DNA from: Chrysomallon squamiferum
Lineage: Eukaryota; Animalia; Mollusca
Direction of reading: 5' to 3'
Assembly (NCBI GenBank): GCA_012295275.1
Contig: CM022679.1
Span: 24,800,001 to 24,864,000 of the forward strand
DNA: 64,000 bases
Position 1 is the first letter of the stretch. Each line of letters opens with the position of its first letter. Position numbers and translations under genes: made by a program. Below the pieces are notes generated by a model. That model saw only the letters and a list, made by a program, of their open reading frames with translations, was not told where the DNA came from and made no database searches. Of the stretch, positions 1-47,322 are shown piece by piece.

Positions 1-570
1 ATTTAACTTAAAATTCCACATTTTGTTTATTTAATTTTTGCATCATTCTTGTGCATTGAGATTTTTGTTTTTTGTTTTTCATGCATAATGTTGAAATTCA
101 TTTATGTTACATCCTAATACAGTTGTACATAGAAATGGAAAGCTGTCAGTATTGTTTTTCAGTCTGTATTTGTGGTTTGAGATGGCAGAAAGAAAGAACA
201 ATATATTAAAAAAAACAAATAAAAAACATCAGTATTGTTTGTTGTTTGTCTGAATGGTCTGCTCAGTTCTGCTGAACAGTGGAAGGAAAATTGAATAACT
301 CTTCACATTGTCAAACAATTAAGATCAGACACTTTCTAGATACAGGTTTTGACTGATCTTAGAATTTTTTTATTTTGCTTTGTGAATGTAAGTGATACAT
401 ATGCTACATCATTATCCAGCTTACAGAAAACTGACTTTAGAAGGGTATTACTTTGTAAATACATTTTTTTTTTTTTTTGTTGAGCCTTGTAACATTTTCT
501 GCCCAGATTATTGAAATGGATATTAAAAAAAATAAATAAATAATTGCCAACAAATCATTTACAAGAATAT
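1..570 (+). repeat. Segmental duplicate of 38767-39325 (caspase 3' flank), same orientation
   Basis: Near-identical runs, e.g. atttaacttaaaattccacatt... and gtagaaatggaaagctgtcagtattgtttttcagtctgtatttgtggtttgagatggcagaaag, ...gccaacaaatcatttacaagaa. Confidence 0.93.
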
Positions 571-958
571 CCACACTTAATTAATCATTAATAATTTTAA
601 CATGCATCATTTTTTTCTACAAATGCAACGTGTTAGGATTTTTTTTTATTTTTTTTTTTTTTAATTACTTGAAAGTTGTAGACCACTGATCTAAGACGGG
701 ATTAGTTGCTGGATCAGTTCTCATCATTGCTCCATTTGGGCTCTCACTACCTCAGCTGGTAACCTATGACTCATTTATTATTGTTTTTTTGTTGTTGTTT
801 TTTTTTTTTTTTTTTGATAATGGGTTTTTTCTTGTTTCTTTCCTTTTGTTTTTTTTTTTTTTTTTTTTTCACTCTTCTAGTGGGAAGCTGTCTGCAAAGA
901 TTAAAAACCATCTAGGTCACTGAATGTTATTATAATTAAACAGATATTATTCACATAC

Positions 959-1229
959 CATTTTTAACTTTAGTCACCATTTTTTCAGATTTTAAATTAT
1001 TGTATACTTTCATAGTGAATCCAAGATGTCTGAACATTTTTTTAAAGAGCACTGGCATCTTTTCTGAACCCAGGCCTATTATCCATGTCAGCTTTTTTCT
1101 TAAACTTCTCATTGTTAATAATCACAGCCAAACCTCGATTTTTATTAGTGAAATTATAGCAGTCAGATTTATAATAATCCTCAACTGAAGGCAACTCAAA
1201 ACAGCTTTTTCTTTCTTTCTTTTGATTTC
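959..1229 (-). pseudogene. Isolated caspase exon (N-terminal part of the large subunit), relic of a tandem duplicate of the caspase at 41053-45329
   Basis: Translates GNQKKERKSCFELPSVEDYYKSDCYNFTNKNRGLAVIINNEKF..DMDNRPG. Near-identical to exon 43988-44250, with AG/GT edges. A 1-nt insertion gives TAA at 1042-1044. Downstream on - (570..1) the sequence matches the 3' flank of the full gene (38767-39325), so the SHG/QACRG exons are missing. Confidence 0.9.
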
Positions 1230-1308
1230 CTGTGGTCAAATAAAAAAAAAAAAAAAAAAAAAAAAATACTGAAAAATTATAATTATGACATTTATAAATT
1301 TTATTGAA

Positions 1309-1365
<57 letters not shown>

Positions 1366-2284
1366 TGAGATGAACACATATTTGATGATGCAGCCACAAT
1401 TTTCTCCAAAACAAACAAAGTGATAGGGTTGTGTGTGTAGTCCTGCATGACCCCTACATGAGTTTTGAAATAACAAAATGCATTGTAGGGTCCCTCTCCC
1501 TCTTAAATTTGTGTCAGCTACTTATCCCACTAATATCTGTTTTTACAGTAGATGGGGCTAGTTGCTGTAATGACAGGAAAGCAATGGAATGGAAAGGTAT
1601 TACAAATAATCTGTAATATTCTCTGATGCATATTATGTGTTACTTCCTAATAAAGCAAGTTGAAATATAAACAATTTCATAATATTGACTTCGTTAACCT
1701 TTCAACAGTATTGATTTCATAAGTTTACAAATTACTAGCTTATTATCAAGATGAGTAACTTAAAACTGTTAGCTAGCTTCTGCATAAAAATTAAGAAAAA
1801 ATATGTTTTATTAAACTTCATATTGTAAATCAGGTTTAAACAGATAAACAGAAAAGAAACCTACTACTACAACTCACAGCTATTCATTTTCCATTAGCAG
1901 CTTGAGATCTTTTCAAGCAAATACCTTTAACAAAATAATCATGGGGCAATAGTTGGATTGTTTTATGTGAAAATGTCTTATCCGGATGCTCTTTCTAGTA
2001 ATCTGAACATCGATTAATTTTTAATAAATTTTACCAACACCAATTGAACAGACAAAGATATTAAAATTATTAGAAAACAATCTTCGGATTCATGTGTTAA
2101 CAAAGTCTGGATTGCATGGTTTCAGTTATTAGTGTTGTTATTATTAAAATCATCTATCGTTTAATTTTTCACAGAAACATGAGCGTAAAACGTTAAAGAA
2201 GAAAAAAAAAAAAAATTAATACGTAAAGATCTCAAATTTTGATTGTTTGATTATGAATACAATGGTGTTTGTTCCATTTCAGCT

Positions 2285-2776
2285 CACAAATTGTTGTTTA
2301 TTCGTTAAATCAGAAAGAAACAAACCGACCATAATATTACATGTATTATACACGCATGTACGTAGTGGCAAGATATGATGGCTAAATAAATTTCTGTTGT
2401 TTCGGGTACTGAATTTACTTCGACAAATACATGTAAATTATACACAGTGTTAAAAGTTATTTCTCTTTGTGTGCAGTGGCTGGTTTAGATCTCAAAAGAC
2501 CACTCTGAAAATAGTTTTCGTTTTAAAAACAATAAATTGTCGTTATTTATTCTATATATGATCTATATATTAATATACAACATACAACAGCAGTACTGTT
2601 TTTGATCGTTGAATGCGTTTTGATCGTTTTAGGATGGTTACTAATAAACAGATACTTAATTTAATTGGCAAAAACCAAATTTGTTGTTTCTTCTATACTG
2701 CTTTTATTTATTTTTTGTTTTGTTTGTTTGTTTGTTGTTTGTTTATTTATTTATTTATTTTCTTCTTCTTCTTCTT

Positions 2777-2807
<31 letters not shown>

Positions 2808-45329: not shown

Positions 45330-45444
45330 TTTATCTAAAAACAACAGAAAATAAATTAAAGATATAAAGTAAAAAATGAATTCAATCATTTTATCAGGAA
45401 GAAACAATAAAGAAGTAGATTTAGTCCTGTTGTCAAAAAAATTA

Positions 45445-45870
45445 ACAACACAGACATTGTACTGAACAGAAAAAAATGTGATATAATACAATGTAGATTC
45501 TACAATATACAATATACAGACATTGTACTAGGAAAATATGATATAATACAGTGTAGGTTCTATATACAATACACAAAAACTGTATTGGACTGATAAAATT
45601 ATGATGTAATACAGTGTTGATTCTGCATACAACACACAGACATTGTACTGGACTGATGTAAAAACTAATATTATATACACTGTAGATTCTGTATACTTAA
45701 AATATGAAATACTGTGTAGACCCTGTATATAAACACAGACATTGCATGGACTGATAAAAAATGATATAATACAGTGTAGATTCTGTATACAATACACAGA
45801 CATGGACTGGTAAAAAATATTATATATAAAACTGTGTATTCTGCACATAATACACAGACACTGTACTGTA
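45445..45870 (+). repeat. Minisatellite, ~58 bp unit x ~7
   Basis: Recurrent acacagacattgtactg..atataatacagtgtagattctgtataca. Confidence 0.9.
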
Positions 45871-46505
45871 ATGAAGAAAATGTTTAAAAAGATCAGTATA
45901 TTCTGTTACAACTCAGTGGACTGTAACTGCTGAAACAGTCACTGTAGGTTGTTGATCCTGCTGTGGTCACTAAAAGTGAGACAGATATTTGTGGTTCTTG
46001 AAGAATATAACCACTGAATAATTTTAATTATGGTTAAGCTGTGTAAGATGTGTGGGAAGAGGGTATCACTGAGTAGTTTCAATTATGGCATCTGAAAGGT
46101 AAGTATCAGTTGTTTTCAAAAGAGGTGCAATTTTAGTGTTTGTCATAATCTGCTGCTTTCTCTTGACATGCCCAAAAGTCTGAGTTAAATGAATTCCAGT
46201 GCCCTTTCTGTTTCAAGGAGTCAAATATATTTTGTCAGTATGACATAAACAATTTTAAAAACCCACAAGAATGGCAGTAATGGATTTTTCAGTTGAATCT
46301 TTTTTCTGTAAGTAAAGAACATAGACAAATAACTGTGGGGAAAAATGTCTGAATAAATAATGCAACAACATAATAATTTTATAATCTATGATTTTATTAC
46401 CATCATAATATCAGTAAGTGGCACAGGACTTACGAGAGTGAAAACATTTTGTCATCATGCAATGGGTTACTCTTTTTCTTTTCTTTTTTATTTCATTTAT
46501 TTATT

Positions 46506-46557
<52 letters not shown>

Positions 46558-46982
46558 AATTTAGAACAAAATTATGCTGTTCATATTAAATTATGGTTCG
46601 AAAATTTCTAACTAGGGTCAGATCTATAGCACAATCACAGAATCAGTGGCCAAACCATAGCAGAAGTGTCATTATTTCTTAATGGCAGCTATTTTGAATA
46701 CGGTTTTAAAATAGGAAGGGGTGAATTTTAAGCCGTAAATTCAGTAACATGTATAAACCACTGCAAACGATAAACTGTTGTCTAAATATTCACATAAAAC
46801 GAAATAATTTTTTGTCTTCCGGCATCGAGTAACTTTCTTCATCTTTAAGTTTCAGTTTCTTATTTGTTTGCTGTTCAACGAAACAAGAAAGTGGTATATT
46901 TGTTTCATATTTTAAATAAAAATAAAAATAATATAAATATGTGGCATATATATATATAAAAAAGACGACATTAAGTTATTAC

Positions 46983-47085
46983 CTTAAAGTAACGAGTCCA
47001 ACAAAACAGATACTGAAATGTGATCGCCTAGAGAAAGCTGGGATTCCCCTACCACTTCAAGCATTCCCGGTAAAACTCGGAACAA
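46983..47085 (-). promoter_or_regulatory. Putative caspase non-coding first exon and promoter with an NF-kB site
   Basis: Minus-strand donor AAG|gtaat at ~46983; GGGATTCCCC 47040-47049 (GGGGAATCCC on -) fits the kB consensus GGGRNNYYCC; GAS-like TTCCCGGTAA ~47064. Motifs conserved in the duplicate at 38290. Confidence 0.6.
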
Positions 47086-47322
47086 CTCGGTTAATTTCAT
47101 AACATTCAAATGTACTTTTTTGTTTCTGCATACAACAATTTATCCAGTTCTTTGAAACTATCGTTAATGGAGTAAGAATCGGAAATTATATTAATTAATG
47201 TTTATTTACAAATTAAAGTATACAGTTTAATTTAAGTTAAATGTTGATAGGAGACTGTTAGTCCGGATACGGTCTTATTGCATAGACTGTTTTCAGATAA
47301 ATCATATAATATTTAATTTAAT

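Follow-up and report, generated by a model that had tools for sequence, protein, structure and literature searches.

Caspase gene fragments flanking a TRPM2-like channel gene in Chrysomallon squamiferum as likely debris of repeated local duplication

Results

We analysed a 64,000-nucleotide stretch of the genome of the mollusc Chrysomallon squamiferum (assembly GCA_012295275.1, contig CM022679.1, positions 24,800,001 to 24,864,000; referred to throughout as the window; guanine plus cytosine content 26.5%), in which pieces of a caspase gene lie on both sides of a TRPM2-like channel gene. From left to right the window carries caspase fragments (minus strand), a three-repeat gene (plus), the TRPM2-like channel gene (plus), an orphan caspase promoter (minus), a caspase gene termed caspase B (minus), a Toll-like receptor gene (minus) and ATAD1 (minus). 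The original prediction, made from the sequence alone, held that a tandem caspase copy, A, had been split by insertion of the TRPM locus. The tandem duplication was borne out by collinear, same-strand copies. The caspase fragments, in contrast to that model, are likely the debris of at least two rounds of local duplication, with deletions, around a TRPM gene that was probably already there. The caspase-related features are as follows.

1 to 682, minus strand: left fragment, copy of the distal 3' flank of caspase B; the core (1-572) differs from B at 28/550 sites and the edge (573-682) at 27/108
683 to 957, minus strand: left fragment; a deletion join at about 683-745, together with the 5' portion of the intron that follows the p20 exon
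958 to 1231, minus strand: left fragment, copy of the p20 exon; splice sites intact, one frame break as assembled
1309 to 1365, no strand: left junction, an (ATT)19 tract of 57 bp; the equivalent site in B (44400) holds a degenerate TAA tract
37674 to 38480, minus strand: orphan caspase 5' end; it comprises non-coding exon 1 (donor 38233/38232), the region upstream with the kB site (38290), and two parts of intron 1
38767 to 39452, minus strand: distal 3' flank of caspase B, from self-BLAST
40076 to 40287, minus strand: extra caspase-intron remnant in the 3' flank of B; matches 43394-43625, with 32/206 sites different
41050 to 47255, minus strand: caspase B, with promoter containing a kB site (47040), non-coding exon 1, ATG exon (45332-45190) and four more coding exons

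Self-BLAST of the window revealed four homologous block pairs on the same strand and in the same order (1-682/38767-39452, 896-1310/43917-44400, 37674-37954/45847-46118 and 37956-38480/46690-47255), with E values from 5e-51 to 0. This dot-plot-type comparison agrees with the prediction that parts of caspase B recur elsewhere, collinear and in one orientation. The left arrangement holds 36,363 bp where B holds 1,446 bp (44401-45846, including the ATG exon), in line with the roughly 1.45 kb put forward earlier. Within the 36,363 bp stretch, tblastn detected neither the ATG exon nor any of the last three coding exons. The pieces described for the left copy were real, but a further loss had been missed: the copy lacks about 4.3 kb that hold the last three coding exons of B, including the catalytic QACRG, and its intron homology continues weakly to about 745. 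Likewise, the blocks listed in the earlier inventory stood, but the intron remnant at 40076-40287 had been overlooked. Since the match of the left fragment already starts at position 1, the unit may extend beyond the window.

Caspase B contains a Peptidase_C14-type caspase domain in which QACRG is split by an intron. Its inter-subunit linker is acidic and long (more than 60 amino acids): the linker exon that separates ACRG from the start of p10 has about 94 codons, read across a frame break. As assembled, B contains two frame breaks, the left caspase exon one, and the TRPM and repeat genes several, many of them at single-base runs; the window also shows small indel differences from the sequencing runs. 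These two observations mean that the pseudogene status of B or TRPM cannot be called. Intron 1 of B holds a degenerate minisatellite (45447-45905, unit 58-63 bp), and the right breakpoint falls at its edge in B coordinates. A near-perfect, MITE (miniature inverted-repeat transposable element)-like palindrome of 151 bp (47323-47473, 90%) lies about 70 bp upstream of the end of the homology between B and the orphan promoter. An open frame in the duplicated 3' core (39070-38861, minus strand) showed weak likeness to the TRP-box exon of TRPM (tblastn E 0.03); as a candidate TRPM remnant it had no Pfam support and was treated as chance.

We examined the junctions in sequencing runs. Part of 37001-46900 was contained in nine of the 11 listed runs, from three studies, and contigs of four (DNA runs X1, X2 and X5 and RNA run X8) were placed on 37450-38600, with 32 of 206 pieces shown. 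The junction at 37674 was bridged, with at least 31 letters on each side, in X2 and X5 (2/4 runs), and was tiled by contigs with 30-base overlaps in X1 and in RNA run X8. The junction at 38480 was bridged in 3/3 DNA runs; the internal deletion at 37955 was bridged in one of the three and tiled or nearly bridged in the other two. The right-hand junctions (37674 and 38480) are not assembly errors. Agreement on them extends across two studies, one run of which may be the source of the assembly. The case raised earlier against the arrangement, that no reads would span the junctions, does not apply at 37674 and 38480, where contigs do bridge. A misjoin confined to the left 1.3 kb, in which a paralog or another haplotype was wrongly joined on, either at the (ATT)19 tract or where a contig ends, while the right half is real, appears improbable. 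It would fit a left junction inside a 57 bp microsatellite, a match that begins at position 1, the indel differences between assembly and runs and the many frame breaks in coding exons. On the other hand, most differences between the left pieces and B are substitutions, which marks these pieces as a real paralog rather than a noisy copy; long reads, if the assembly was built from them, would cross a 57 bp tract with ease; and the right junctions on the same contig were confirmed. TAA runs touch both junctions (TAA share of the window 1.2% for at least four units to 3.2% for at least three units with margins), a position that is compatible with microhomology-mediated joining. Strand skew at the junctions was mixed and was not used.

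Contigs of the promoter and intron 1 region fell into at least three copy types, with types A, B and C each present in 3/3 DNA runs and a possible fourth in X1 and X5. Type C differs from A by eight letters and a 4-base gap over 117 bp, shares the indels of A and continues into sequence that the window does not contain. Run X8 (RNA) yielded only C-like contigs at 37769-37885, and these tiled across 37674 by 30-base overlaps; junction 37674 may be present in this second diverged copy, with the qualification that de Bruijn tiling can be chimeric. One RNA contig stops at the exon 1 donor and the loose end of another matches the ATG exon but for a single difference, indicating that some caspase paralog or allele is spliced normally. 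The median depth of A-type over B-type contigs in the three DNA runs was 2.95, 4.04 and 1.69, from 6/3, 3/2 and 8/1 A/B contigs with two allele-like X2 contigs excluded; contig depth is not copy number. A single split copy A leads to the expectation of two copy types only, at equal dose, which is contradicted by at least three types and by depth ratios of 1.7-4.0, the depth being a hint only. The ratios hint that the orphan-promoter unit is amplified or that B is rare in some samples; either way the dose differs between types. Higher A-type than B-type depth is expected if the orphan-promoter unit was amplified without the promoter of B.

The orphan promoter, in which a roughly 570 bp internal deletion separates the two intron 1 pieces, retains the kB site GGGGAATCCC (38290; 47040 in caspase B) and the exon 1 donor, and it faces the 3' region of TRPM, 6.7 kb past the inferred stop. 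That a kB promoter lies antisense to the TRPM 3' region was proposed from the outset, and it is real DNA in more than one study, with contigs across its junctions. Its core is far less diverged from B than its flanks (3/100 versus 100/655 sites, p = 3e-4), which could reflect gene conversion or selection, whether past or still acting. Of 30 bins of the orphan region, 17 are touched by RNA contigs; these data are strandless and DNA carry-over is possible. Caspase exon 1 had 0 matches in JGI metagenomes.

We compared the divergence of the two sets of pieces from caspase B. In addition to the 3' core and edge, the left intron and exon differ at 5/62 and 16/263 sites, respectively, and the right pieces at 44/260, 35/260 and 21/135 sites, with 3/100 for exon 1 and the core promoter. 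Overall divergence was 76/983 (7.7%) on the left compared with 103/755 (13.6%) on the right (p = 7e-5), the left pieces lying at 5-8% apart from the 3' edge and the promoter-side non-coding pieces at 13.5-17%. In the left p20 exon, the nonsynonymous proportion (pN, 0.062; 13/210) is close to the synonymous one (pS, 0.066; 3/45), so there is no plain sign that selection has kept its 6% divergence low. The divergence of other duplications in the window forms two classes, 7-8% and 15-17% (best-kept blocks only), which hints at two duplication bursts. Two age classes, the third small fragment, at 40076-40287, and the presence of several minor local duplications would also suit independent small captures, made near the source at different times by repair or replication template switches and without a large unit. 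We consider this slightly less probable even than the misjoin: all four fragments share the orientation of B, the left pieces keep the internal order of B across the 4.3 kb gap, and the orphan promoter begins where a head-to-tail copy would.

The 36 kb block and the remainder of the window contain the following features.

2557 to 7508, no strand: old inverted duplication of about 5 kb; its arms share 75-88% identity and enclose a central direct duplication of 0.5 kb (4534-5503)
8760 to 12150, plus strand: probably a gene of its own, with three repeat exons of actinoporin/aegerolysin fold; its ends were deduced from splice signals
12827 to 30929, plus strand: TRPM2-like channel gene with SLOG, TRPM2-like and transmembrane domains and TRP box; first and last exon placed by eye
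31609 to 36681, no strand: non-coding tandem repeat of about three copies, period about 1.8 kb, downstream of TRPM
50022 to 52664, minus strand: Toll-like receptor gene; single exon, intact, open frame of 880 amino acids
56559 to 63999, minus strand: ATAD1, synteny anchor; extends past the window end

An opposite-strand TRPM gene is indeed present in the 36 kb block, as predicted, but it fills only about 12.8-30.9 kb, about half; the remainder comprises the probable second gene (8760-12150), the inverted duplication of about 5 kb, which starts 1.2 kb inside the left junction, and the three-copy repeat. In the latter, the best-kept blocks differ by 7-8%, and a block of about 225 bp is kept at 91-93%. 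The start exon of TRPM itself was not located in the window. Many frame breaks at single-base runs occur in TRPM exons at 15320-20040 and others, a pattern which suggests uncorrected assembly indels. One TRPM intron holds a pyrimidine-rich minisatellite of 700 bp (27747-28455), flanked by a partial duplicate of the start of the next exon (27559-27740 with 28384-28492).

The best match to a TRPM exon was Littorina V1264_011657, 'TRPM member-like 2' (59% identity over one exon; one TRPM among 18 candidates). Littorina ATAD1 is V1264_011672, 15 locus tags away, with protein accessions about 20 apart and contigs of equal length for the two genes; the best identity of the window's ATAD1 exon was with Gigantopelta aegis (92%). 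It is likely from this gene order that TRPM beside ATAD1 predates this lineage and that TRPM is an old resident. The proximity in Littorina argues against arrival from afar; it does not argue against a local shuffle. No terminal inverted or direct repeats were found, the 1 kb ends of the 36 kb block sharing only AT-rich words of up to 19 bp. There was no target-site duplication, as 1,446 bp of the target are missing and only generic ATT runs lie on both sides. Helitron-type ends consist of TC ... CTRR between A and T, and a motif scan of both junctions for them was negative. No long transposase-like frame was present among the open reading frames of the window.

The exons of the three-repeat gene (about 9349-9693, 10181-10591 and 11064-11453) each encode a domain of about 130 amino acids, with frame breaks as assembled in repeats 1 and 2. 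A strong acceptor at 12093 likely opens a terminal exon with a stop after three codons (KEE-stop) and AATAAA at 12131, which makes a separate gene more likely than a TRPM fusion; as the first TRPM exon was not found, the two may share a start. The first intron contains a kB-like site (9267), and a STAT-like palindrome lies upstream (8613). None of the three repeats matched Pfam; Anemone_cytotox in particular was found in 0/3 repeats and, weakly and under the cut-off, in 1/22 relatives. HMMER identified 28 relatives of the domain, the best being an uncharacterised stand-alone 464-amino-acid three-repeat protein of G. aegis, encoded on a different contig from G. aegis ATAD1. None of these 28 carried the TRPM Pfam domain, so no fusion was seen there (weak evidence), and a word-based search found longer proteins with the repeat domain in 0/70 candidates. 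A limited literature search found nothing linking TRPM with aegerolysin or molluscan actinoporin. A first fold model, from three sequences (predicted local distance difference test, pLDDT, 49), gave no clear match and was replaced by a model of repeat 3 from 25 sequences (pLDDT 92), which has a beta-sandwich fold. This model matched, well above background, both actinoporins (Z 14.7, root-mean-square deviation 2.4, 130 residues aligned, template-modelling score 0.8) and Cry34Ab1 (Z 13.9, deviation 2.0, 107 aligned; family profile E 1.9e-8). The intact Toll-like receptor gene adjoins the caspase gene, forming a small immune neighbourhood.

Discussion

Taken together, these data favour birth-and-death evolution by tandem and segmental duplication with deletions, possibly of a unit of about 43 kb; we give this overall reading a probability of roughly 0.55. 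The single split of one copy A by a TRPM insertion is weakened by the unequal overall divergence from B, by the more than two copy types, by a TRPM gene that appears native and by the failure to find any transposon hallmark. The alternative that had been set against it from the start, tandem units with deletions, fits better.

We infer the order of events as follows. An older head-to-tail caspase duplication (about 14-17% divergence) would have set another caspase copy between B and TRPM. Of that copy, a deletion with its end at a short TAA tract would then have spared only the promoter, exon 1 and a portion of intron 1, which would be the present orphan promoter. A younger and larger duplication (about 5-8%) may have copied a unit of up to about 43 kb (1311-44400) containing the repeat gene, TRPM, the orphan promoter and the 3' part of the caspase gene. 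It would have been joined at TAA tracts, possibly through microhomology, and the fragments at 1-1310 would then represent the tail of a neighbouring unit; the tail left of TRPM would subsequently have lost its last exons. Such a duplication model predicts younger left pieces, a sister orphan promoter and a higher dose of the orphan than of the B promoter, and each of these has at least a weak counterpart in the data.

Several points weigh against this interpretation. The asymmetry in divergence is real, yet most of it comes from a single 550 bp block, the 3' core, which may have undergone gene conversion or be a conserved untranslated region. Non-coding edge bits alone (32/170 versus 100/655, p = 0.29) show no asymmetry, the intron alone gives 5/62 versus 79/520 (p = 0.18), and the left exon has only 45 synonymous sites, with which a true rate of 15% is still compatible (P = 0.07). 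In the stretch 37861-37901, type C agrees with B at four sites and with A at two. The two excluded A-type contigs of X2 (depths 11.1 and 15.6) look like alleles; if so, A would be single-copy and B rare. Alleles of B may be split. The synteny rests on one TRPM match and locus tags without a tree, the predicted second TRPM would lie left of position 1, beyond the window, and the model needs more events than a single insertion.

Some of the same observations bear on a local move, in which the adjacent 36 kb block of repeat gene and TRPM entered one tandem copy A with loss of 1.45 kb, by a route such as template switching at TAA tracts or a pair of inversions. It is the earlier insertion model with a source close by instead of far off. 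Such a move would account for left and right pieces that are collinear, complementary and without overlap in B coordinates, for TAA runs at both junctions, for the inverted duplication 1.2 kb inside the left junction and for the lack of a significant difference in divergence between the non-coding edges (p = 0.29). It sits poorly with halves that differ in overall divergence, with at least three types at uneven depth and with the absence of terminal repeats or a target duplication; moreover, with several genomic copies, nothing ties the left pieces to this particular promoter. We regard it as unlikely, although it is the strongest competitor of the duplication model.

A more far-reaching reading is that the locus is an immune cassette of variable copy number. 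The first exon of the repeat gene or its three domains would be spliced onto TRPM to give a channel with N-terminal lipid- or glycan-binding sandwich domains, and the orphan kB promoter would have been selected as an infection-induced antisense switch on TRPM. This is a long shot, on a par with the left misjoin. Most likely the arrangement is a real but ordinary product of immune-gene turnover. Its use lies in a warning that complementary flanking fragments need not mean insertion; otherwise it is one more case of birth-and-death among molluscan immune genes. Two leads are of greater value. One is the kB-bearing promoter directed into the 3' region of TRPM, with a core that has diverged much less than the sequence on either side; the other is the actinoporin/aegerolysin-fold gene of three repeats, undetected by Pfam, whose vent-snail relative is uncharacterised.

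The locus can be compared with several known systems. Gene capture by large DNA transposons is known for Helitron, Pack-MULE and Polinton elements. The likeness lies in a multi-exon block between two halves of homologous sequence; in contrast, terminal inverted repeats, target duplication, Helitron-type ends and a transposase-like frame are all absent here, and TRPM looks resident.

Long-linker caspase-3/6/7 genes of bivalves and gastropods have expanded by tandem and segmental duplication, according to the accessible part of PMC11543851. Caspase B resembles them in its short prodomain, Peptidase_C14 exons, QACRG and linker exon of about 94 codons. It differs in having two frame breaks as assembled, the likeness being one of features rather than of a tree, and the accessible part of that source describes no fragments around TRPM. 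TRPM2 has 21 copies in C. gigas, with tandem duplication of TRPs, in the accessible part of PMC8004665; the window TRPM shares the SLOG, TRPM2-like and transmembrane domains of the expanded molluscan channels, whereas no NUDT9-H tail was seen in it.

The three-repeat gene differs from other members of the actinoporin/aegerolysin superfamily in its three tandem domains, 10-14% identity and lack of a Pfam match, and from actinoporins in that the model is limited to the sandwich core, which corresponds to actinoporins from about residue 28-31 onwards. As far as the accessible part of PMC9645577 shows, G. aegis is tabulated without an actinoporin-like gene, and presence-absence variation of actinoporin-like genes and birth-and-death of immune genes occur in molluscs. 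Presence-absence variation at the present locus is inferred from contig depth only, and the unit would carry unrelated neighbour genes, whereas near-identical and diverged copies, pseudogene debris and apparent differences between individuals are features that the locus shares with molluscan immune-gene birth-and-death.

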